The notes under the pieces: model-generated
Databases searched by the model: none
The model's input: only the letters and a program-made list of their open reading frames with translations
Told to the model about the DNA's origin: nothing
Source: Candidatus Woesearchaeota archaeon
Lineage (GTDB): Archaea > Nanobdellota > Nanobdellia > Pacearchaeales > GW2011-AR1
Length of the DNA: 64,000 nt
Assembly (NCBI GenBank): GCA_964372205.1
Contig: CAYJQB010000001.1
Location: forward strand, 13,180-77,179
Direction of reading: 5' to 3'
Shown: positions 4,064-26,637 of the stretch, piece after piece
Numbering within the stretch: position 1 is the first letter of the stretch
How the letters are laid out: every line of letters starts with the position of its first letter
Program-made: the position numbers and the translations under genes

Positions 4064-4333
4064 ATGCCACAGATATCTAAACCAAAAAGAGACAAAATCT
4101 CAGAGCAAATACTCCACTTCCTATTTTCCATCTCTCCAGAATCAATTTTTACATCAAAAATAGCCCAAGAAATCATAAGAGACGAAGAATTCACAAAATC
4201 TCTTCTCCAAGAATTAGAAAAAAACAAACTAGTGGTAAAAATAAAGAAGTCTCCTCAAGGTTCAGATTACCAAAGGAGAGAACGTTGGAGACTTTCCAAT
4301 GAAGTCTATGAAGTTTTCAAGCAGCGACAATAG
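4064..4333 (+). CDS. Small hypothetical protein (89 aa), possibly wHTH
   Basis: Found from the ORF track; it has a charged helical C-terminus. There is no firm family assignment. Confidence 0.3.
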   Translation: MPQISKPKRDKISEQILHFLFSISPESIFTSKIAQEIIRDEEFTKSLLQELEKNKLVVKIKKSPQGSDYQRRERWRLSNEVYEVFKQRQ

Positions 4334-4817: not shown

Positions 4818-5543
4818 ATGCAGGAAGACAAAATAAAGGAATCTTTCGCTAACGTAAGGCAAGACATAGATTATCTTTACTACGAGATTCAAGAATTAAA
4901 ACGAACTATAGAAGAAATAAAAGAACTTCAGACAGAAATACTCAAGAAACAGACAGACAACAGACAATCAACAGACACTTCGACACATAATTTGCCTTTA
5001 GAAGACGTAAAAAGCCCAAATTTAACAATCTCCAGTGGAAATGAAGGGGTTCCAACAGACAGACAGACAGACCAACAGACAGACAGACAACCCCCCCATT
5101 TCCTATGGAATAAGAGAGAAAATCTTCAAAATCTATCTTCAAACAACTCAGAAATACACATAAAATCATCAGAAAAAGACAAAATAATGGAAAAATTACC
5201 AATTTTAGCCCAGCTGCACAGGGCCTCAGAATTCCTAGAATCATTAGACGAACTCAAGAAGGAAGTTCGCGTTAAGTTTAAAAAATTAACCTCTCAAGAA
5301 ATGCAAGTGTTTAGTAAAATATATGAATTAGAAGAACAAGGATTAATTGTAGATTATACTCTTCTTGCAGAAAAGCTTTCTTTAACAGAAAGTTCAATAA
5401 GAGATTATGTTCTTAGGTTGATACGAAAAGGAATTCCCGTCGAGAAACACAAAGAAAACAACAAAAGAATAACTCTTTTTATATCAAGAGAATTAAGAAA
5501 AATAGCGCCTTTAGAAACTATTCATCAACTAAGATCCATCTAG
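4818..5543 (+). CDS. Coiled-coil / C-terminal winged-helix DNA-binding protein, paralog A
   Basis: The N-terminus is heptad-rich (ELKRTIEEIKELQTEILKK). The C-terminal HTH (LSLTESSIRDYVLRLIRKG) is alignable with the 5848-6558 protein. The gene contains in-frame (AGAC)n repeats and a C7 tract. Confidence 0.5.
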   Translation: MQEDKIKESFANVRQDIDYLYYEIQELKRTIEEIKELQTEILKKQTDNRQSTDTSTHNLPLEDVKSPNLTISSGNEGVPTDRQTDQQTDRQPPHFLWNKRENLQNLSSNNSEIHIKSSEKDKIMEKLPILAQLHRASEFLESLDELKKEVRVKFKKLTSQEMQVFSKIYELEEQGLIVDYTLLAEKLSLTESSIRDYVLRLIRKGIPVEKHKENNKRITLFISRELRKIAPLETIHQLRSI

Positions 5544-5585
5544 GGAGTTTTCCGGAACACCGAATAAATTTTTAAAGTTTCCACT

Positions 5586-5900
5586 ATGTCAAATTTAAGC
5601 TTTTTAGAGCTTTAAATGCTCAAATTTAAGCTTTTTACTTTTTCCCACCTCAGAAAAATTGCTCACCAGAGGCAATTTTCCCTCATTTTTCCACGAACTT
5701 TAATTTTTTGCACAACTGATCATACTCACTTTTCAACAATTCTTAAAAAACAAAGAAAATCACTCACTTTTACATCAAAATTGAATCCTTTACAATACCC
5801 AAAGGCACTCACTTTTCCACTTTTTTTGAACATTTTTATATCTCTCCTCACTTTTTTTGTTTTTTAGCTGATTTTTTATCTCCCCCAACTCTCACTTTTG
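5586..5900. repeat. Periodic iteron-like direct repeats between the two convergent wHTH paralogs
   Basis: CAAATTTAAGCTTTTTA occurs twice (5590 and 5621). The motif (A/C)CTCACTTTT occurs five times (about 5717, 5763, 5808, 5847 and 5891) with a 39-46 bp period. Confidence 0.6.
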
Positions 5901-6558
5901 CATATTTTAGCAGTTTTTCCCTGATTTCTTCTGGCACATAGACTCTTTTTTTACCATTAGGTTCGGTTAACTCATACACCAAACCCTCACTTTTCTGTTT
6001 TATTGAGTTTATTTGGCCTCTAATTGTAGATCTCTCTTTTCCTAAAAGTCTAGCTAAGTCCTCATAACTAAGTTTCATCTCTTCTTCGGCATTCAAAAGG
6101 GTAAAAACTATCAATCTTTCATTAGCCGACAATTGTTGCAAAATTTGATGAAAATTGGCTGTTTGGACAGCTGTTTGAACAGGTTCTTGAACAGGATAAA
6201 CAGCTGTTTGTTTATCAACACCTGTTTGTTTTTTAAACACCTGTTTGCCTTCCTTTGCAAAATTAATCAAAGAAACAGCCTCTCTGATACTTTCAACCTC
6301 ATCTTGAATCGACGATATTTCCACTCTTAACTCATTTAACACATCAAACAGCTGTTTATCTTTGTTATCTAGGTGTTTAATCCACTTTCCAACTTTGTCA
6401 AAATCATCCTTAACTTCTTGAAAACCCCTTTTAGTGTTTTCTTCCAGTTTTTCTACCTTCTTTTTTCCAGAAAACCAAAACATACTATTTTTTAAACACC
6501 CATCTTTATAAATATTACGCTCAATAAGCCCGGAAAACAGCATTTCAATAAATCCCAA
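5848..6558 (-). CDS. Coiled-coil / C-terminal winged-helix DNA-binding protein, paralog B
   Basis: Same architecture as 4818-5543; the HTH reads LSYEDLARLLGKERSTIRGQI. The gene contains AAACAGCTGTTT palindromes that encode QTAVQT repeats. Confidence 0.5.
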   Translation of the reverse strand: MGFIEMLFSGLIERNIYKDGCLKNSMFWFSGKKKVEKLEENTKRGFQEVKDDFDKVGKWIKHLDNKDKQLFDVLNELRVEISSIQDEVESIREAVSLINFAKEGKQVFKKQTGVDKQTAVYPVQEPVQTAVQTANFHQILQQLSANERLIVFTLLNAEEEMKLSYEDLARLLGKERSTIRGQINSIKQKSEGLVYELTEPNGKKRVYVPEEIREKLLKYAKVRVGGDKKSAKKQKK

Positions 6559-6564
6559 AATAGC

Positions 6565-6685
6565 ACACTTAAACAGCTACAAACACCCTTAAACACCCTA
6601 GGATTTTTTTTAAACAGCTGTTTAAACACCCTTAAACACCCGTTTATCGTCGGTAAATTGTTTAAACACCCTTAAACACCCCAAA
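6565..6685. promoter_or_regulatory. Iteron array upstream of wHTH paralog B
   Basis: The unit AAACACCCTTAAACACCC occurs three times (6581, 6623 and 6663) with a ~41 bp period. AAACAGCTGTTT palindromes are interleaved. Confidence 0.55.
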
Positions 6686-6828
6686 ACAGACCCGTTTCAG
6701 CTAAAAAATTCAAAAAACTCTCCCAAAAGTCTAAAATAGTGCAATTTTTTCAAAAAATTGGAGGAAATATATTTAAACACTACTTGCTTCTAAAAGATAC
6801 TTAATAGAGGTTAAAAGGAGGTGTCAAA

Positions 6829-6972
6829 ATGAAATCAGGTTGGCAAAGTTGGTTAGCTTTGATTGGTGGTATTGTTGCTTTAGTTGGGCAATGGGTAGCA
6901 GGTTATTATTTACCAGCTATAGGCGGAATACTAGCAGTTATAGGCGGAATCGGCGCAATGACATCTAAATAA
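6829..6972 (+). CDS. Small hydrophobic membrane protein (47 aa), not in the ORF track
   Basis: An AAAGGAGGTG Shine-Dalgarno site lies 7 nt upstream of the ATG. The translation MKSGWQSWLALIGGIVALVGQWVAGYYLPAIGGILAVIGGIGAMTSK forms a glycine-zipper transmembrane hairpin. Confidence 0.45.
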   Translation: MKSGWQSWLALIGGIVALVGQWVAGYYLPAIGGILAVIGGIGAMTSK

Positions 6973-7100
6973 ACCGAATAAATTTTTTATTTTTTAACCT
7001 CTTTCTTATTATTTTTTCACACAATTTAAAAAAGAATTTGCCTCAACAGGAGTGAGGCGCGAAGCGCCGAGCGCGCTCGACATAAGAAAACAGAATCAAA

Positions 7101-7451
7101 ATGGCAGAAGAATTTACAAAAAAACAACAAAAAGAAGTAGAGAAAGAAGTAGAAAAACAAGTAGAAAAACGACTGAAAATCTACGAAAAACTGCTCAAAG
7201 AAGGACATGTTTTCAGATCAGAATTCAAAAAAGAAGCATCCACGGCCATAATAGCAGCATTCGGTTTTCTGATAGCTCTTTCATGGAAAGACTTTGTCAC
7301 AAAAATTGCTGAGAATCTTCAAGGCACAGGCATTATGGTTCGGTACCCATACTTAGCAGAGCTGTATGTTGCAGTAATTATTACTGCATTCTCAGTAATA
7401 GGTATAATGCTCATTTCCAGGTGGGCAAAAAAAGAGGATAAAAACAAATGA
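7101..7451 (+). CDS. Membrane protein with a lysine/glutamate-rich N-terminal repeat (116 aa)
   Basis: From the ORF track. It has KEVEKEVEKQVEK repeats and two transmembrane segments, and is a paralog of 7448-7747. Confidence 0.5.
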   Translation: MAEEFTKKQQKEVEKEVEKQVEKRLKIYEKLLKEGHVFRSEFKKEASTAIIAAFGFLIALSWKDFVTKIAENLQGTGIMVRYPYLAELYVAVIITAFSVIGIMLISRWAKKEDKNK

Positions 7452-7747
7452 GAGAAATAAAAAAGAAGACACACTTCTTCTTCATTGGAGGAGAAAACTT
7501 CAAAAAAGAGGTAAGAAGACAAATCAGATTACTAATCATAGTGACTCTTGGATTCACAATAGCATTTACATGGAGACAAACCATCTTTGATGTCGCCCAG
7601 TCACTCGTAATATTTTTCACAAAAGTAGAAGGCTCAGCCGCACTCAGCATACTTACCTCCATATTCATAACTCTTTTAAGTCTTCTTTTAATGCTAATAG
7701 CTTCCTTCTTTTTAAGAGAAAAATCAGCAGAAAACTACAGGTATTAA
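7448..7747 (+). CDS. Membrane protein, paralog of 7101-7451 (99 aa)
   Basis: Its start overlaps the upstream gene (ATGA). The AFTWRQTIFDVAQSL segment is alignable with ALSWKDFVTKIAENL in the paralog. Confidence 0.5.
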   Translation: MREIKKKTHFFFIGGENFKKEVRRQIRLLIIVTLGFTIAFTWRQTIFDVAQSLVIFFTKVEGSAALSILTSIFITLLSLLLMLIASFFLREKSAENYRY

Positions 7748-7789
7748 GGCACCAATAATATTTATTAACTTCAAACACTTAAAAAAAGG

Positions 7790-7951
7790 ATGGCTACAAT
7801 ATCATTAACAATCTCAGCAATACTCGCAATAATTCTAGGATTAGTAATACTTATCTGGCCAAAGCTTCTAAGATGGGCAGTAGGACTTTATCTTTTAATC
7901 TTCGGAATACTTCAACTCTTAGGGAATTACGTAGATTTTTCCCCAATATAA
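7790..7951 (+). CDS. Small membrane protein (53 aa), DUF3096-like, not in the ORF track
   Basis: MATISLTISAILAIILGLVILIWPKLLRWAVGLYLLIFGILQLLGNYVDFSPI forms two transmembrane helices; the resemblance to the DUF3096 pattern is from memory. Confidence 0.4.
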   Translation: MATISLTISAILAIILGLVILIWPKLLRWAVGLYLLIFGILQLLGNYVDFSPI

Positions 7952-7974
7952 TCTAGAAGGAGGTAAAAGAAAAG

Positions 7975-8145
7975 ATGCAAAGTAAATGGTATGGTTGGCT
8001 GGTTCTTTTGATAGGAATTCTATTAATAATCCCAATGTTTGGAGTCGCAGCATTAGGCACGTTAACTTCAGGATTTATTGGTTGGTTCATTCCAATAATA
8101 ATCATCCTCCTAGGAATTCTAGGTATAACGAAAGCTAAAAAGTAA
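7975..8145 (+). CDS. Small membrane protein (56 aa), not in the ORF track
   Basis: An AAGGAGGTAAAAG Shine-Dalgarno site precedes it. MQSKWYGWLVLLIGILLIIPMFGVAALGTLTSGFIGWFIPIIIILLGILGITKAKK is similar in style to the 6829-6972 protein. Confidence 0.45.
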   Translation: MQSKWYGWLVLLIGILLIIPMFGVAALGTLTSGFIGWFIPIIIILLGILGITKAKK

Positions 8146-8159
8146 TGCTAAAACCTTCT

Positions 8160-8215
8160 GCTTTCGCCTAAAACTTCCAACATAACTAATAAGTTCGGAT
8201 TAAGATATTAACGAT
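8160..8215 (+). promoter_or_regulatory. Repeated promoter/leader element, copy 1
   Basis: The sequence CTTTCGCCTAAAACTTCCAACATAACTAATAAGTTCGGATTAAGATA is near-identical to copy 2 and overlaps copy 3. It is followed by an AT-rich TATA-like tract. Confidence 0.5.
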
Positions 8216-8247
8216 AAAATTATAAACCTCCAATTACTAAATTAGTC

Positions 8248-8397
8248 GTGAAAAACGTTAAAGCATTCATAGGAATTCTATTAATCTTATTGATAGTTTT
8301 AGTTTTCTTTGTACCTCTGGGTTCAGGAATGTTTCCTTATATTTTAGTAGGAGTCATACTTCTAGGTCTTATTTGGAAAGTAGCTAAATGGTTTTAA
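8248..8397 (+). CDS. Small membrane protein (49 aa, GTG start), not in the ORF track
   Basis: VKNVKAFIGILLILLIVLVFFVPLGSGMFPYILVGVILLGLIWKVAKWF follows copy 1 of the repeated promoter element. The start codon is uncertain. Confidence 0.35.
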   Translation: MKNVKAFIGILLILLIVLVFFVPLGSGMFPYILVGVILLGLIWKVAKWF

Positions 8398-8466
8398 TCA
8401 ATTTAAAGGATTTATGTGTAAATACTTCGCACAAGATACATTAACTGAACTCAAGAAAAATTCGGG

Positions 8467-8724
8467 TTAAGCAGCAGAGTATTTTCTATCGTAATTTCTA
8501 TCAGCTAGACCTTGTCCAAGACCAAAAGCAAGACTTTCGAAAACACCGCGAGGCCTAGGAATTTGACCTTTCAATTCTCTCTCTTCTTCAACTACCGCAT
8601 TTATACTTGCATCAGACATGAAGAAAATATCTCCATCGTGTCTATGCTCTATATTTGCTTCTCTTCTCCCATTTTGATAAGCTTGTCCTAATCTATCAAC
8701 CCTACATTTTAATCCTTCAAACAT
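8467..8724 (-). CDS. Hypothetical protein (85 aa)
   Basis: ORF only. Confidence 0.35.
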   Translation of the reverse strand: MFEGLKCRVDRLGQAYQNGRREANIEHRHDGDIFFMSDASINAVVEEERELKGQIPRPRGVFESLAFGLGQGLADRNYDRKYSAA

Positions 8725-8804
8725 CTTTGAGTTTAACTTATTTTATTATTAAATATTTGTTGACTGGAAAGTATATTTTTTAGTCCACTCTTGTGCTAAA
8801 ACTT

Positions 8805-8870
8805 CCTGCTTTCGCCTAAAACCTCCAACATAACATATAAGTTCGGGTTAAGATAAATTTAAAAAGTTGA
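8805..8870 (+). promoter_or_regulatory. Repeated promoter/leader element, copy 2
   Basis: CTTTCGCCTAAAACCTCCAACATAACATATAAGTTCGGGTTAAGATAAATTTAAAAAG has a TTTAAA TATA-like box about 30 nt before the ATG at 8887. Confidence 0.5.
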
Positions 8871-8886
8871 ATTATTAAGAAACAAG

Positions 8887-9234
8887 ATGGATAATGGAAG
8901 AATCTTTAGAGCAGCAGGTTGTTTTGCCTTAGCAGCAATATCTTTCAAGACTAGCCAAGTTCTTTATAACGATTTCCTCAATATGCTTGCAGCACATAAT
9001 CCAGACACATCCTTAGTTCATCGAAGAGAAAGCCTTCCTCCACACTATATAGAAAAAATGAGTAATCGAGACTCAGACATTAAGGTTGAAATGGCATTAC
9101 GTGACGTGTTCGGAAGTATTGGAACTCTTGCAGCTTCAAGTTACTTAACTGCCCTCGGTGTTAATTTAGCAACCAGTAGGAGAAGATATGCCCCCGAGAG
9201 AGAACACCCAAGCCAAGGTTTAGAAAATTCTTAA
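8887..9234 (+). CDS. Hypothetical protein (115 aa)
   Basis: ORF downstream of promoter copy 2. Confidence 0.4.
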   Translation: MDNGRIFRAAGCFALAAISFKTSQVLYNDFLNMLAAHNPDTSLVHRRESLPPHYIEKMSNRDSDIKVEMALRDVFGSIGTLAASSYLTALGVNLATSRRRYAPEREHPSQGLENS

Positions 9235-9244
9235 TTTACACGCA

Positions 9245-9300
9245 AAAACCTCCAACATCATAGATAAGTTCGGATTAAGATAAATTTAAAAAGATAAGGT
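9245..9300 (+). promoter_or_regulatory. Repeated promoter/leader element, copy 3
   Basis: AAAACCTCCAACATCATAGATAAGTTCGGATTAAGATAAATTTAAAAAG lies 14 nt before the ATG at 9314. Confidence 0.5.
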
Positions 9301-9313
9301 ATTAAGAAAAAAC

Positions 9314-9736
9314 ATGTCACATCAGATAGGTTCAACGGACAGAGTAACCTTGGAAGGAAGAACTTTCGATGTTGAATTGAGACCCCACCACCGAGGTGAA
9401 ACCTATTCAAAGTGTGAAGTCGACTGCCCGGAGGGATGGCAAATTCCGATTTATTCTCTCTTACAAGGCATGAGAAATAATCCAGAATATAAAGAAAGAT
9501 TTGGTTTACTTATGATCTCCGAGTTTGTCCAAAATCCTGACGAAATCTCAAGACAGAAAGGTCTTGCCGCTTGGTTCTTTGCGAATTCGGCCGGAGCCGG
9601 CCTGAGTTGCTTTAGGGATCCTCAGAACAAAAGTCCTCTGCTCGGGGTACGTTACGCCCGTGAAATTTCTCAAGGACAACCAAATCCCGACAAACCAATA
9701 GATCCAGATGGAACTGGTGATTATCAAACACATTAA
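9314..9736 (+). CDS. Hypothetical protein (140 aa), noticeably more GC-rich than its surroundings
   Basis: ORF downstream of promoter copy 3. GC-rich stretches such as GCGAATTCGGCCGGAGCCGGCCTGAG stand out from the AT-rich neighbourhood. Confidence 0.45.
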   Translation: MSHQIGSTDRVTLEGRTFDVELRPHHRGETYSKCEVDCPEGWQIPIYSLLQGMRNNPEYKERFGLLMISEFVQNPDEISRQKGLAAWFFANSAGAGLSCFRDPQNKSPLLGVRYAREISQGQPNPDKPIDPDGTGDYQTH

Positions 9737-9747
9737 ATCTATAAAAT

Positions 9748-9984
9748 ATGACAAGAAGAAAACCCATAAGAAATCTTTTAGCAATATCTGCAATTGCCTT
9801 AGGAGTTTCTCAACTAGATAACTTCAGACCTGAACTTCACAAAGCATACCAAGAAACGTCTGCAGTAATTAGAGGAGAAAAAACATCTTTCAAAAAAGAG
9901 GACTTCAGTTCGAGAGAAATTCTTGCAGGCACACTTTACACATCAAGTTTATTAGGAGCAATTTATCTAATTACAAGAAAATGA
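9748..9984 (+). CDS. Hypothetical membrane-anchored protein (78 aa)
   Basis: ORF with an N-terminal hydrophobic segment and a C-terminal transmembrane segment. Confidence 0.35.
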   Translation: MTRRKPIRNLLAISAIALGVSQLDNFRPELHKAYQETSAVIRGEKTSFKKEDFSSREILAGTLYTSSLLGAIYLITRK

Positions 9985-10340
9985 GTAACTTAAAAAAAAT
10001 AATCGGACTAGGAACGGCATATACTGCATCATTTGCATTTGGATTTGCAAAAGGAATAAGTGCAGAGCAAGGATTTCCAATAACTGATACTCATTTAGAC
10101 GACACTCTAATGGCAGGGGTTCCATTTCTAAGCGCAATTATCGGAGCTAAAACTTTTCCAACACATTCAGACACCGAACGCGAAATGGAAAGATATCATC
10201 AAAGACCAACAGGAATGGAATACGCCCTCATTTCTGGAGAAAGAGCAGTTGGCGCAGGACTTGGCTTCGTCGGTTCTGTAATATCTCTCGGGTTAGGTTA
10301 TACTTTAGGATACACGGGCTCACATATTTTAAATCGTTAG
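9981..10340 (+). CDS. Hypothetical glycine-rich membrane protein (119 aa)
   Basis: Overlaps the previous ORF (ATGA). It has glycine-zipper-like segments. Confidence 0.4.
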   Translation: MSNLKKIIGLGTAYTASFAFGFAKGISAEQGFPITDTHLDDTLMAGVPFLSAIIGAKTFPTHSDTEREMERYHQRPTGMEYALISGERAVGAGLGFVGSVISLGLGYTLGYTGSHILNR

Positions 10341-10354
10341 AAATATGAATTAAT

Positions 10355-10684
10355 CTAATCTCCTAACGGCTCAAATCTAAAAGTGTCAATAGTATAATAA
10401 TCTCCGATTCTCGTCCAGGGTGTTTCTATTCTCAAGGATGAACCCAACAAACTCTCTGATTCAAGCTGAGCAATTTGTTTACCAATTTCATCGATTTCTT
10501 CAGGTTCCAGTCTTTTGTTTTGGTTAGTGTCAAACCTTTCCATAACACCTGGCCCATACTCTCCGAGTCTTTGAGCATATTTGTCCCGATTCGAGTCTAA
10601 CGCGTAAGTCACGATTATGGAAGAAGTTAAAGCAGCCACAGCTATAATTCCGTTATTAGCTGTCAGAATTCTCGGTATTTTCAT
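10355..10684 (-). CDS. Secreted protein with an EF-hand-like calcium-binding loop
   Basis: A signal-peptide-like N-terminus (MKIPRILTANNGIIAVAALTSS). The loop DTNQNKRLEPEE matches the 12-residue EF-hand pattern (D1, N3, N5, E12). Confidence 0.4.
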   Translation of the reverse strand: MKIPRILTANNGIIAVAALTSSIIVTYALDSNRDKYAQRLGEYGPGVMERFDTNQNKRLEPEEIDEIGKQIAQLESESLLGSSLRIETPWTRIGDYYTIDTFRFEPLGD

Positions 10685-10718
10685 GGATTGTTTTAAGATG
10701 AGAAGTTTTTAACGATTT

Positions 10719-11153
10719 CTATGCAACAGCGCCAGCCAATCCAAAGTTAGAATCTTCACAGTCCTCCTCGTTTCTCCTTGCCATGATTTTTCTTAATCTT
10801 TTAGACATGTTCTTCTTTCTTATAGCCCTGTTACATCCTTCTACAAAGCAATGATAATCTGTAATTGTTGCAGGAATTGTATTTGAACGTTCTGGCTCAA
10901 TTTCCGCACCGTTGGCGCCCAAATCATAGACTCGTCCATTCACTGGAAGAGTTTCAATTTCTATTCTATCGTGTTCACCAAGAATTTTCCTTTTAATCAT
11001 TCGCTCACCCAAAGCAAGAGCAGAGCCATTTGGATCCTCATAGGTTTTTCCGTTAACCAAGCAATAAGCAACTCTTCTATCAGCTAATCCAAGATTTTCA
11101 GAAGGAACACGTTCAAAATAAAGAAGCACTCTGCGAGATTTATCGCGCCCCAT
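10719..11153 (-). CDS. Hypothetical protein (144 aa)
   Basis: ORF with a possible Cys/His cluster (HCFVEGC). Composition is GC-richer than the neighbours. Confidence 0.35.
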   Translation of the reverse strand: MGRDKSRRVLLYFERVPSENLGLADRRVAYCLVNGKTYEDPNGSALALGERMIKRKILGEHDRIEIETLPVNGRVYDLGANGAEIEPERSNTIPATITDYHCFVEGCNRAIRKKNMSKRLRKIMARRNEEDCEDSNFGLAGAVA

Positions 11154-11203: not shown

Positions 11204-12811
11204 CTATTTCCTAACAAAATCCCTAAGGACTTTCAAAACTTCTTCTCTTTTTGAAGGAAGGAATGTAATGCTTCCTGCATTTTTATGCCCTCCACCGTCG
11301 GCAAAAGAGTCTTTCACTTTTTTGTTAATCTCTTTTATAAGTTCATGAACTGAAAAGTCTGCCTTGTCTGTAGCACGGATTGTTATAGCAGTGTTCATTA
11401 CTCCGACAGTAACAACCGCATCAAGTTTTTTATCTTTTTGAATAAAATCGTGCACAAGTCCAACCGCTCTTCCAGGTTTAGGAAAGAATCCAAATCCAGG
11501 AAACGTTTTGTCTATGTCTATTAATTGAAGAGTAACCCTTCCAAGCTTTTCAATTTGTGCCCCAGATTTTGCGATTTCAAGTCCCTTCTTATCTAGCTCA
11601 TTTATATATGGTGCCATAAGTTCGACAAGCTTCTTTTGTTGAGCTCTTGGTTCTCCAAAAATTATTTCTATATATTCTCTAGCTTCCATGAATTTCAATT
11701 TGGCAGAAACAAAATCTATCACCGTCGCTATATTTCCCAAAAGTTCTTTTGAATATCCCATCTCCTTTGCAAGTTTCAAATACTGATTTACAGCATCAGA
11801 GTTCAGTAAATCAATTCTGTCTGCAATTCCAGCCATCGCTGCTATCTGTTCAATATTTTCTACTTCGTAAATCATTCTAGCAAGTTCTGCGCACAACATT
11901 CCTGCAGAGAATTTTTGTCCATCTTCTCCAACTAGAAAAGGATTGACGTGTACAAGCACCTCACCACTAATAACATCCTCATCAAAATAGTGATGGTCTA
12001 TAACTATGAAATCCATCCCATGAACTTTTCCCTGTTTTATTCCCATTAAGTCTTCAGAGCTAGATCCGTTGTCAGCAATAACAACCAGGGGCATTTTATT
12101 TGAGAATTTTGCAACGTTCCTTAAAGAATTTGCAGTATCTCTTATAGAATCATCTATTTCATAGAAAGGTGCAGAGCAAGGAGCTCTTGTGTAAAACTCC
12201 CAAGCGCTTTTTCCTCCTCCGTGTTGCTGTTCTACTAATGGAATAATCGCTTTTTCAAGAGAATATCCTGCAGAATATCCATCGGCGTCGTTGTGATGTC
12301 TTACAATTATCGGGCGATTTTGCATTACTGCTAGTTTAATTTCCATTGCAGCCTTCATCATACTAGGTCTTAACTTATCTAATATTTCGCTGTCTATCAT
12401 AAATTCAACATCTCTTGCCTTAGATCTTTCACGCAATATATCTTGCATTTTTTCAGACAAAATTTCTTTTTCTTCAGAAGACAATTTTTTCATAGAAATT
12501 ATCTCGCCTTCCAAAGCATTGTTATATTCATTGATTTTAACCTTTGCAGAAATATAATCTTCAGCATTCACTTCAGGATAGGATCTCTCCCCCGGCTTGC
12601 TTGCAAATCCTTTGAGCATGAAGCTTGCAGTTCCATCACTGACAGAGAATAATGTAGGTCCAGAAGTCTGACTAACACTGTCAGTAACACACTCAAGCAG
12701 TAATACTTTTCCGATAGAGTTCCTGTCTATTTTGTCAAGAGTGCTCGATTTTGCTTCCTGGCCAGGTCTAGGCCTGAAATTTTGATTTTTCTTTTTTTGA
12801 TTCATTTTCAT
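11204..12811 (-). CDS. RecJ-like DHH/DHHA1 phosphoesterase (archaeal GAN/RecJ/Cdc45-like nuclease) with an N-terminal OB-like extension
   Basis: DHH family motifs RHHNDADG and VIDHHYF are present, and the C-terminal GGGHKNAGS is the DHHA1 motif. A non-catalytic N-terminal domain of about 150 aa precedes them. Confidence 0.8.
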   Translation of the reverse strand: MKMNQKKKNQNFRPRPGQEAKSSTLDKIDRNSIGKVLLLECVTDSVSQTSGPTLFSVSDGTASFMLKGFASKPGERSYPEVNAEDYISAKVKINEYNNALEGEIISMKKLSSEEKEILSEKMQDILRERSKARDVEFMIDSEILDKLRPSMMKAAMEIKLAVMQNRPIIVRHHNDADGYSAGYSLEKAIIPLVEQQHGGGKSAWEFYTRAPCSAPFYEIDDSIRDTANSLRNVAKFSNKMPLVVIADNGSSSEDLMGIKQGKVHGMDFIVIDHHYFDEDVISGEVLVHVNPFLVGEDGQKFSAGMLCAELARMIYEVENIEQIAAMAGIADRIDLLNSDAVNQYLKLAKEMGYSKELLGNIATVIDFVSAKLKFMEAREYIEIIFGEPRAQQKKLVELMAPYINELDKKGLEIAKSGAQIEKLGRVTLQLIDIDKTFPGFGFFPKPGRAVGLVHDFIQKDKKLDAVVTVGVMNTAITIRATDKADFSVHELIKEINKKVKDSFADGGGHKNAGSITFLPSKREEVLKVLRDFVRK

Positions 12812-26122: not shown

Positions 26123-26237
26123 AGAAGACAGCATCTGTGCTTCGCCTCTGTTCGGAGACTAACACACCAGACGTGGCAGGCTTAACTTCTGTGTTCGGAA
26201 AGGGAACAGGTGTTTCCCAACCACTATGGCCGTCTTC
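26123..26237 (-). rRNA. rrf: 5S ribosomal RNA
   Basis: The reverse-complement contains GGCCATAGTGGTTGGGAAACACCTGTTCCCTTTCCGAACACAGAAGTTAAGCC, the universal 5S loop-C/helix-III signature. The terminal helix is GAAGACGGC/GCTGTCTTC. Confidence 0.7.
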
Positions 26238-26315
26238 AGAAATATCCTTTATTTAGAGTATAAAAACCTTTCCAATCAATAACTTTAAAATAAGCTAATC
26301 TCCTATCTTTGGTAA

Positions 26316-26399
26316 GCGGGGATGCCGGAGTGGTCAAACGGGACGGACTCAAGATCCGTTAGCTTAGTGCTTACGAAGGTTCGAATCCTTCTCCCCGCA
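26316..26399 (+). tRNA. tRNA-Leu(CAA), class II
   Basis: By manual folding, the acceptor stem is GCGGGGA/TCCCCGC with discriminator A. The anticodon stem ACGGA/TCCGT flanks loop CTCAAGA. It has a long variable arm. Confidence 0.8.
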
Positions 26400-26400
26400 T

Positions 26401-26475
26401 GCTCCCGTAGCTCAGCCTGGATAGAGCATTGGGGTCCTAACCCAAGGGTCACAGGTTCAAATCCTGTCGGGAGCG
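26401..26475 (+). tRNA. tRNA-Arg(CCT)
   Basis: Acceptor stem GCTCCCG/CGGGAGC. Anticodon stem TTGGG/CCCAA flanks loop GTCCTAA. T-loop TTCAAAT. It starts 1 nt after tRNA-Leu. Confidence 0.75.
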
Positions 26476-26521
26476 TTCTAAAAGCAAATCTTTAAAACCC
26501 ACTTCTCAATAGAATAAACAT

Positions 26522-26593
26522 GCGTGGGTAGTTCAGTGGTTAGAATCTCGGCCTTCCAAGTCGATGACCCGGGTTCGAATCCCGGCCCGCGCA
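26522..26593 (+). tRNA. tRNA-Gly(TCC)
   Basis: Acceptor stem GCGTGGG/CCCGCGC with discriminator A. Anticodon stem TCGGC/GTCGA flanks loop CTTCCAA. T-loop TTCGAAT. Confidence 0.75.
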
Positions 26594-26637
26594 TGCTTAA
26601 TTAAACTTTTAAACCCTCGCAGTTTAGTGTTTTTATC

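Follow-up and report, generated by a model that had tools for sequence, protein, structure and literature searches.

We describe a tandem array of six small membrane-protein open reading frames (ORFs) at positions 6829–8397 of a 64-kb stretch of DNA from a Candidatus Woesearchaeota archaeon; this stretch, analyzed at its full length, is referred to as the window. The ORFs are designated P1 (6829), P2 (7101), P3 (7448), P4 (7790), P5 (7975) and P6 (8248), and the neighboring gene at 5848–6558 is designated W. Sequence comparison indicates that the array is composite: its first four genes are conserved, and the last two open a fast-changing stretch. By gene order and family assignment, P1–P4 are a syntenic chromosomal cluster common to distant DPANN relatives of the Pacearchaeota/Woesearchaeota type, and the array probably encodes small membrane subunits under common regulation, with a heteromer of DUF5654 proteins at its core.

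Gene content and coding evidence

All six ORFs lie on the + strand where the original prediction had placed them, and four of the six are shorter than 60 amino acids (aa). A Kyte–Doolittle scan assigned one or two hydrophobic helices to every protein, again as predicted, while the proposed glycine-zipper-like pattern was clear in P1 and not clear in the other five. The tight or overlapping spacing was likewise recovered, with a 4-nt overlap (ATGA) between P2 and P3 and remaining intergenic gaps, in order, of 128, 42, 23 and 102 nt. Two strong Shine–Dalgarno (SD) sites match the near-perfect sites that had been described: AAAGGAGGTG (6814–6823, + strand), 5 nt ahead of the 6829 ATG, and AAGGAGGTAAAAG (7957–7969, + strand), ahead of the 7975 ATG. 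The clustering of small membrane ORFs is not by chance; among the 13 small, non-overlapping ORFs with a predicted membrane helix in the window, six belong to the array and only two lie outside 4–11 kb.

Coding potential was scored with a codon model trained on 43 long genes, using 127 spurious out-of-frame ORFs as controls; the window has a coding density of 89% and a GC content of ~35%. Codon-usage scores of the array ORFs (0.16–0.44) fell within the range of true-gene segments (0.28 ± 0.11) and above nearly all of the spurious ORFs (−0.07 ± 0.16). Homologues were found for every ORF except P6. P1–P5 are taken as genuine genes because of Pfam matches (P2 and P4) and homologue families (P1, P3 and P5), and gene-like codon scores argue further for all six, as does, for P1, an SD site conserved in homologues. 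The array ORFs are accordingly regarded as genes, real or at least probable, that encode two-helix membrane proteins. Annotation often misses them, as had been anticipated: in six assemblies with the same DNA, P1, P4 and P5 are called only sometimes and P6 in none. The six public contigs bearing the locus are 100% identical to the window and therefore provide no information on polymorphism or on the ratio of nonsynonymous to synonymous substitution (dN/dS).

The conserved core: P1–P4

P2 (7101–7451, + strand; 116 aa) is a member of DUF5654, with an E/K-rich N-terminal helix containing KEVEK repeats followed by two membrane helices. It matched PF18898 with 53.2 bits (gathering cut-off 23.8) over model positions 4–70 of 71, and this whole-domain match includes the conserved AAFGFLIALSW and PY...SRW motifs of the family. 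Searches recovered 58 homologues of P2, and 152 relatives in genomes, almost all from DPANN archaea. Because DUF5654 occurs almost only in DPANN archaea (Pacearchaeota, Woesearchaeota, Nanoarchaeota, Parvarchaeota, Diapherotrites and Aenigmatarchaeota), the window is taken as a segment of a DPANN chromosome. The AlphaFold2 (AF2) model of P2 is a helical hairpin (predicted local distance difference test score, pLDDT, 72) in which the E/K-rich N-terminus and the first membrane helix form one long continuous helix; the charged part is highly variable in length among P2 homologues. A function for P2 could not be drawn from structure, the model being a plain helical hairpin with meaningless Foldseek matches.

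P3 (7448–7747, + strand; 99 aa), which shares the 4-nt overlap with P2, is a divergent DUF5654 paralogue. It was detected by a profile of 48 P2 homologues (E 3.4e-11) and by direct BLASTP comparison with P2 (E 1e-6). The original prediction had described the two proteins as paralogues with a KEVEK-repeat N-terminus; the paralogy holds, and the repeat is confined to P2. The N-terminus of P3 carries a conserved FF(I/V)GGxNFKKE motif, which is kept in clear orthologues. Such orthologues (E 1e-25 to 1e-37) directly adjoin a P2-type gene, with an overlap or a gap of ≤2 nt, in the related loci L014, L016, L092 and L093. A P2-type gene next to a P3-type gene either overlaps it by 4 nt or lies 1–2 nt away, in either order (window, L016, L092 and L093).

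P1 (6829–6972, + strand; 47 aa) is a G/A/I-rich protein with two helices, and its family had no match in Pfam or NCBIfam. A metagenome scan identified 15 relatives of 45–51 aa with 52–73% identity, nearly all preceded by AAAGGAGGT, the same sequence as in the SD site of P1. These relatives are positioned right after W or adjoin DUF5654 and DUF3096 genes. In four loci the positional counterpart of P1 belongs to DUF378 (PF04070; L016, 59.9 bits; L009, L092 and L093); P1 itself had no Pfam match and is not assigned to DUF378. A single family uniting P1 and P5 was not established either (BLASTP E 0.18; hhalign probability 12.6%, confined to the first 17 residues). Directly 3′ of P1 lies a T-rich terminator-like stretch, ACCGAATAAATTTTTTATTTTT (6973–6996, + strand), with a near copy at 5559–5580. 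Within it, ACCGAATAAATTTTT occurs at 6973–6994, right after the P1 stop codon, and again at 5559–5580, 16 nt past the stop codon of the gene at 4818. Oligo-T functions as a terminator in archaea, and the two copies may represent a shared terminator.

P4 (7790–7951, + strand; 53 aa) has two membrane helices and belongs to DUF3096, the family guessed for the array in the original prediction (PF11295, 33.8 bits; cut-off 23.3; model positions 1–36 of 37). Its orthologues adjoin DUF5654 or P1 genes in L007, L016, L019, L020, L098, L099, L102, L108 and L109. From the distribution of basic residues, P1, P2, P3, P5 and P6 are predicted to have both ends in the cytoplasm, and P4 to have its short basic loop there.

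Conserved neighborhood across DPANN

The same small families recur between an Lhr helicase gene and a DHH-protein gene in more than 20 related DPANN contigs. The recurring set comprises a P1-type or DUF378 gene, one to three DUF5654 genes and DUF3096, divergent from the winged-helix gene. In relatives whose P2 is 45–58% identical to that of the window, the order is Lhr, an 89-aa HTH-like (helix-turn-helix-like) gene, a 241-aa gene, an opposite-strand gene of ~210 aa, the small membrane genes and DHH; in window and relatives alike, Lhr and the DHH/FKBP genes flank the cluster from opposite sides. Linkage of W, DUF378/P1, the DUF5654 pair and DUF3096 persists despite shuffled order (L007, L012, L016, L019, L020, L092, L093, L098, L102, L108 and L109). 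L016, L092 and L093 carry DUF378, P3-type and P2-type genes, with DUF3096 additionally in L016. The arrangement is DUF5654, DUF3096 and P1-type in L098, and DUF5654, DUF3096, DUF5654 and P1-type in L108. A P1-type gene is followed by DUF3096 in L102 and L109 and stands right after the regulator in L012, L103 and L110, and three DUF5654 genes occur in tandem in L014 and L019. Absence of the block from sister genomes, a possibility raised in the original prediction, applies to one part of it only: P1–P4 are present at the same site, and the P5/P6 stretch is without counterpart in 84 related loci.

In DPANN lineages without W synteny, DUF5654 adjoins genes for the RuBisCO large subunit (21 loci), a NUDIX hydrolase (26), a YhbY/CRM-domain protein (18) and cysteinyl-tRNA synthetase (16). 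Gene order in these lineages suggests a second conserved DUF5654 neighborhood, again in ordinary chromosome. Examples of such loci are L025 4719–5990, L069 1453–1893, L052 7512–7772 and L039 1442–2773.

W and the candidate control sequences

W (5848–6558, − strand) is divergent from the array and encodes a coiled coil followed by a C-terminal winged helix, in keeping with the winged-helix regulator expected beside the array. Its true start is probably near 6483, because relatives start at the residues MFWF. In a single-sequence AF2 model, residues 140–215 (pLDDT ~80) form a winged helix-turn-helix (wHTH) with H-H-H-strand-strand topology, and the top Foldseek matches were MarR, MepR and ArsR (E 4e-4, probability 1.0). 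The model thus supports a MarR/ArsR-like winged-helix fold for W, a predicted regulator. By sequence, HTH matches were weak and sub-threshold, with none of the curated HTH family cut-offs reached. In 19 of 100 related loci, an orthologue of W is likewise divergent at this position.

The 270-nt intergenic region between W and P1 carries three copies of TTTAAACACCCTTAAACACCC. The part at 6569–6682 (+ strand) is a candidate operator array for W, in which three copies of (T)TTAAACACCCTTAAACACCC lie ~41 nt apart; these amount to three exact 18-mers, against 0.02 expected. The repeats are built of AAACA[CG]C heptamers (AAACACC and AAACAGC) at a spacing of 10–11 nt in groups of two or three. Heptamers are ~25-fold enriched in the equivalent intergenic region relative to the rest of the loci, with conserved phasing, and are present in the window and in nine of 12 relatives compared (for example L007, L008, L009, L011, L014, L015, L022 and L055). 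Such phasing suits a protein that occupies a single face of the DNA helix. W would be the obvious candidate binder, which makes 6569–6682 its likely operator.

W is the last of three successive genes with weak HTH or winged-helix signals (4064–4333, 4818–5543 and 5848–6558) that are syntenic with Lhr and the membrane cluster in 17–19 related loci. Low-complexity linkers are present in the proteins of the latter two, TDRQTDQQTDRQ in the 4818 protein and QTAVQTA in the 5848 protein. The two proteins were compared as possible paralogues and showed no significant similarity.

A conserved GC-rich element (7028–7087, + strand; core GGCGCGAAGCGCCGAGCGCGCTCGAC at 7056–7081) precedes P2 by 20 nt. The element is ~60 nt long, with the consensus TAGCC(A/T)CAATAAnnnTGA-GGCGCGAAGCGCC-GAACGCGCCCGACA and the invariant core AGGCGCGAAGCGCCG. 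The window holds one copy, and nhmmer returned 25 matches (E < 0.01) in related loci, including L007 5595–5655, L016 5449–5504 and 6777–6838, three copies each in L099 and L110, and two each in L022 and L092. All 25 are on the small-gene strand and in contigs of the W-linked clade, and they lie on the cluster side of W wherever W is present on the contig. The core usually starts 58–64 nt ahead of a start codon, with a TATA-like box between. A variant in L109 (4749–4805) keeps a shorter palindrome, GGCC-GAA-GGCC. The element had no match in Rfam and no counterpart in the viral-contig DNA scan. As a structured RNA it was rejected: it folds no better than shuffled sequences, and the structures differ between copies. 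Invariance of the core by selection leaves no covariation signal to be read. Because of the missing Rfam match and the folding no better than that of shuffled sequence, a DNA site is favored over an RNA structure; the element is more likely a transcription-factor site, that is, a candidate protein-binding site near the promoter.

The variable stretch: P5, P6 and beyond

P5 (7975–8145, + strand; 56 aa, two helices) belongs to an unannotated family. An exhaustive HMMER search recovered 13 full-length relatives of 52–67 aa (38–56% identity, E down to 4e-11) sharing the conserved loop PLIGVxxLGxxTxGxxxW; a word-indexed search with P5 returned no match, and the family is not in Pfam. P6 (8248–8397, + strand) is a 49-aa orphan with two predicted helices. 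It has a codon score of 0.37, and its codon and synonymous-codon scores exceed those of all 127 spurious ORFs. P5 and P6 share 19 of 20 nt between 8008–8027 and 8266–8285. Codon statistics and this shared stretch make P6 a probable gene, which may have arisen by duplication of P5 and diverged. Membership of P6 in the P5 family was not established (hhalign probability 4.8%), the 19/20-nt stretch alone pointing there.

P5 and P6 open a 3.2-kb stretch of nine orphan small genes (7975–11153) between the conserved cluster and a DHH-family gene (11204–12811), which forms its right boundary. None of the nine ORFs matched ORFs of the 84 related loci at E ≤ 1e-4, where the flanking genes do match, and none matched Pfam, PHROGs or PADLOC; several have predicted membrane helices. 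The equivalent slot in relatives holds other orphans together with toxin–antitoxin pairs (DUF7557/ParE and DUF4258/DUF2283). In gene content, 7975–11153 looks like a gene-turnover hotspot.

A promoter-like repeat occurs three times in this stretch, upstream of P6 (copy 1, 8146–8207, + strand) and upstream of the genes at 8887 and 9314 (copies 2 and 3, 8794–8855 and 9243–9290). Copies 1 and 2 are 90% identical over 62 nt. Copies 2 and 3 continue directly into ATAAATTTAAAAAG, and copy 1 has a different TATA-like box ~10 nt on. The repeats at 8146, 8794 and 9243 may act as promoters. Their 3′ part resembles the sequence after the GC-rich element in relatives (CGACATAAGATTTAAATA).

Elsewhere in the window (26123–26594), a 5S rRNA gene (− strand) precedes closely packed tRNA-Leu, tRNA-Arg and tRNA-Gly genes (+ strand).

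Discussion

The array has two layers. The first is a conserved core of a P1-type gene (in relatives DUF378 takes its place or accompanies it), overlapping DUF5654 paralogues and DUF3096, divergent from the MarR/ArsR-like gene; the second is lineage-specific, with P5, which has its own small family, and the orphan P6 opening the variable stretch. In the mechanism considered most likely, W would set expression of the cluster by binding the phased AAACA[CG]C repeats of the shared control region. Translational coupling would yield the two DUF5654 paralogues in equal amounts, and these would pair in the membrane, probably with both ends cytoplasmic and the E/K-rich helix of variable length extending into the cytoplasm. 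The remaining hairpin proteins would be accessory subunits or co-regulated membrane components. Conserved linkage despite rearrangement and translational coupling of paralogues are the usual signature of proteins working together. We infer a P2–P3 heteromer, with the other hairpins as partners or co-regulated components, because the linkage survives rearrangement and the two paralogues appear translationally coupled. A housekeeping role in membrane or envelope organization seems more likely than lysis, toxin or immunity.

Several observations weigh against this picture. The heteromer is argued from gene overlap and paralogy, and the link between W and its candidate operator from position and conservation. 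P3 scored 21.9 bits against the DUF5654 Pfam model, slightly below the cut-off of 23.8, and L007 and L009 hold P2-type and P3-type genes several kb apart. The P2 model is of moderate confidence only, and PDB profile search, Foldseek and profile comparison returned no relative of P2 with a known function, by sequence or structure. P5 may be unconnected with the conserved core, because its homologues sit in unrelated gene contexts where context is readable. P6 starts with GTG, lacks an SD site and had no homologue in any search, including one of a 5.8-billion-protein database.

The array could instead comprise independent small stress-responsive membrane proteins that share a regulator and a location without assembling, comparable to the stress-induced small membrane proteins of bacteria. 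MarR/ArsR-like neighbors typify stress regulons; among relatives the families vary in order and composition, with P1 and DUF378 interchanging; P5 homologues stand alone elsewhere; and individual promoters or terminators may serve P1, P4 and P6. What speaks for assembly over mere co-residence is that P2-type and P3-type genes overlap or abut in every relative where they are adjacent; the neighborhood also contains no stress-related gene, and in other lineages DUF5654 lies amid housekeeping genes. We consider independent stress proteins a serious though distinctly less probable account. As for a membrane-stress system, also named in the original prediction, the results neither favor nor contradict it. 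It is rather unlikely that part of the array is non-coding, with P6, and less likely P5, being chance hydrophobic ORFs in AT-rich promoter-repeat DNA. Frames rich in I, L and F arise readily in such DNA, and P6, an orphan with a GTG start and no SD site, is the one ORF called in none of the six assemblies. Against this reading, its codon scores exceed those of every spurious ORF, a non-coding gap of ~320 nt would be unusual at the coding density of the window, and P6 shares its 19/20-nt stretch with P5, which has 13 full-length homologues.

The original prediction had also proposed a virus-like or plasmid-like module for holins, bacteriocin immunity or similar accessory functions. Small hydrophobic co-oriented proteins beside HTH genes, an adjoining 3.2-kb strain-specific stretch and toxin–antitoxin pairs at the same position in relatives would all suit such a module. 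Yet the six proteins had no match in PHROGs at E ≤ 0.01, phage tblastn and plasmid blastn were empty, and 2.9 million viral contigs contained no DUF5654 relative. PADLOC likewise returned nothing for the six, and only weak wHTH-type matches (E ~0.005) for two HTH neighbors. Of the neighbors tested with Pfam, none proved to be an integrase, endolysin, capsid, replication or bacteriocin-export gene. A holin or phage lysis cassette is rejected on these grounds and on the identity of the neighbors (Lhr, wHTH, DHH and FKBP genes). Bacteriocin immunity is rejected as well, the Pfam scan of neighboring ORFs showing no bacteriocin precursor, modification enzyme or dedicated ABC exporter. Against a plasmid or integrated mobile element, the core stands at the same Lhr–DHH site amid conserved chromosomal genes in relatives at 45–58% identity, only 7975–11153 being strain-specific. 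The proposal is not supported, and a viral or plasmid module is very improbable. Equally improbable is a reading of the region right of the winged-helix gene as an integron-like array of cassettes, with the GC-rich repeats as recombination sites capturing small genes. A strand-specific repeat of ~60 nt between co-oriented short genes, several per locus, could be read in this way, as could a variable gene content that includes toxin–antitoxin pairs and orphans opposite a divergent platform gene. Among the neighbors scanned, no integrase adjoins the array in any locus; moreover, the repeat does not have the paired inverted ends that mark attC sites, and its near-constant distance of 58–64 nt from start codons, with a TATA-like box between, fits a promoter module. 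DUF5654 and the other core families are, in addition, vertically conserved.

A more speculative extension of the co-regulated membrane set, which we hold to be improbable, is that W and its HTH-like neighbors (4064 and 4818) control a DPANN-specific expression island, with each unit to the right of the regulator having the GC-rich operator beside its promoter. If so, core membrane proteins, toxin–antitoxin pairs and fast-turnover orphan membrane or secreted proteins would be switched together, for example upon host-cell contact, and the conserved membrane core of this host-interaction or envelope-remodeling program would consist of the six small proteins.

With their tiny genomes, DPANN archaea rely on other cells, and few of their lineage-specific proteins have been characterized. 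The locus offers a concrete small target in such genomes: its hairpin membrane proteins fall into four linked families, two DNA motifs are conserved and a dedicated regulator is likely. New here are two uncatalogued small families, those of P1 and P5, which lack an entry in Pfam and NCBIfam, and the two DNA motifs; the rest are catalogued, uncharacterized families. For the annotation of reduced genomes it is relevant that five of six ORFs below 120 aa are conserved, four being shorter than 60 aa and called inconsistently. The value is incremental; the locus overturns no current idea and would not surprise a specialist, and it gives tractable access to the membrane biology of DPANN archaea. Many Pacearchaeota- or Woesearchaeota-specific families of unknown function are reported in a survey of DPANN protein families (PMC8204110), and the available portions of that survey and its supplements do not name DUF5654, DUF3096 or DUF378. 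The literature contained nothing functional on DUF5654, and passing mentions only, with nothing functional, of DUF3096 and DUF378.

Comparison with known systems places the locus as follows. Phage holins and bacteriocin immunity proteins resemble the array proteins in small size and in having one or two membrane helices; unlike them, the array has no lysis or bacteriocin context and no viral homologues, and it is chromosomal and vertically conserved. DUF5654 shows a superficial likeness to MscL, with an amphipathic FxxEFK N-terminus, two helices, the first of which carries AAFG, and a cluster of basic residues at the C-terminus. An MscL (PF01741)-like channel was rejected, as hhalign gave a probability of 0.35%, the PDB profile matches contained no MscL and Foldseek was negative. 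W, divergent from the cluster with helically phased repeats in the shared intergenic region, is arranged like a divergent MarR/ArsR regulator and its target operon; it differs from typical members in its long N-terminal coiled coil, in the position of the wHTH at the C-terminus and in falling below every curated HTH cut-off. DUF3096 and DUF378 are uncharacterized small two-helix families, of which the former includes P4 and the latter fills the P1 position in L009, L016, L092 and L093; P1 matches neither. To the Pfam entry for DUF5654, the window adds two features unmentioned there, a tandem overlapping pair of two subtypes and a conserved neighborhood.

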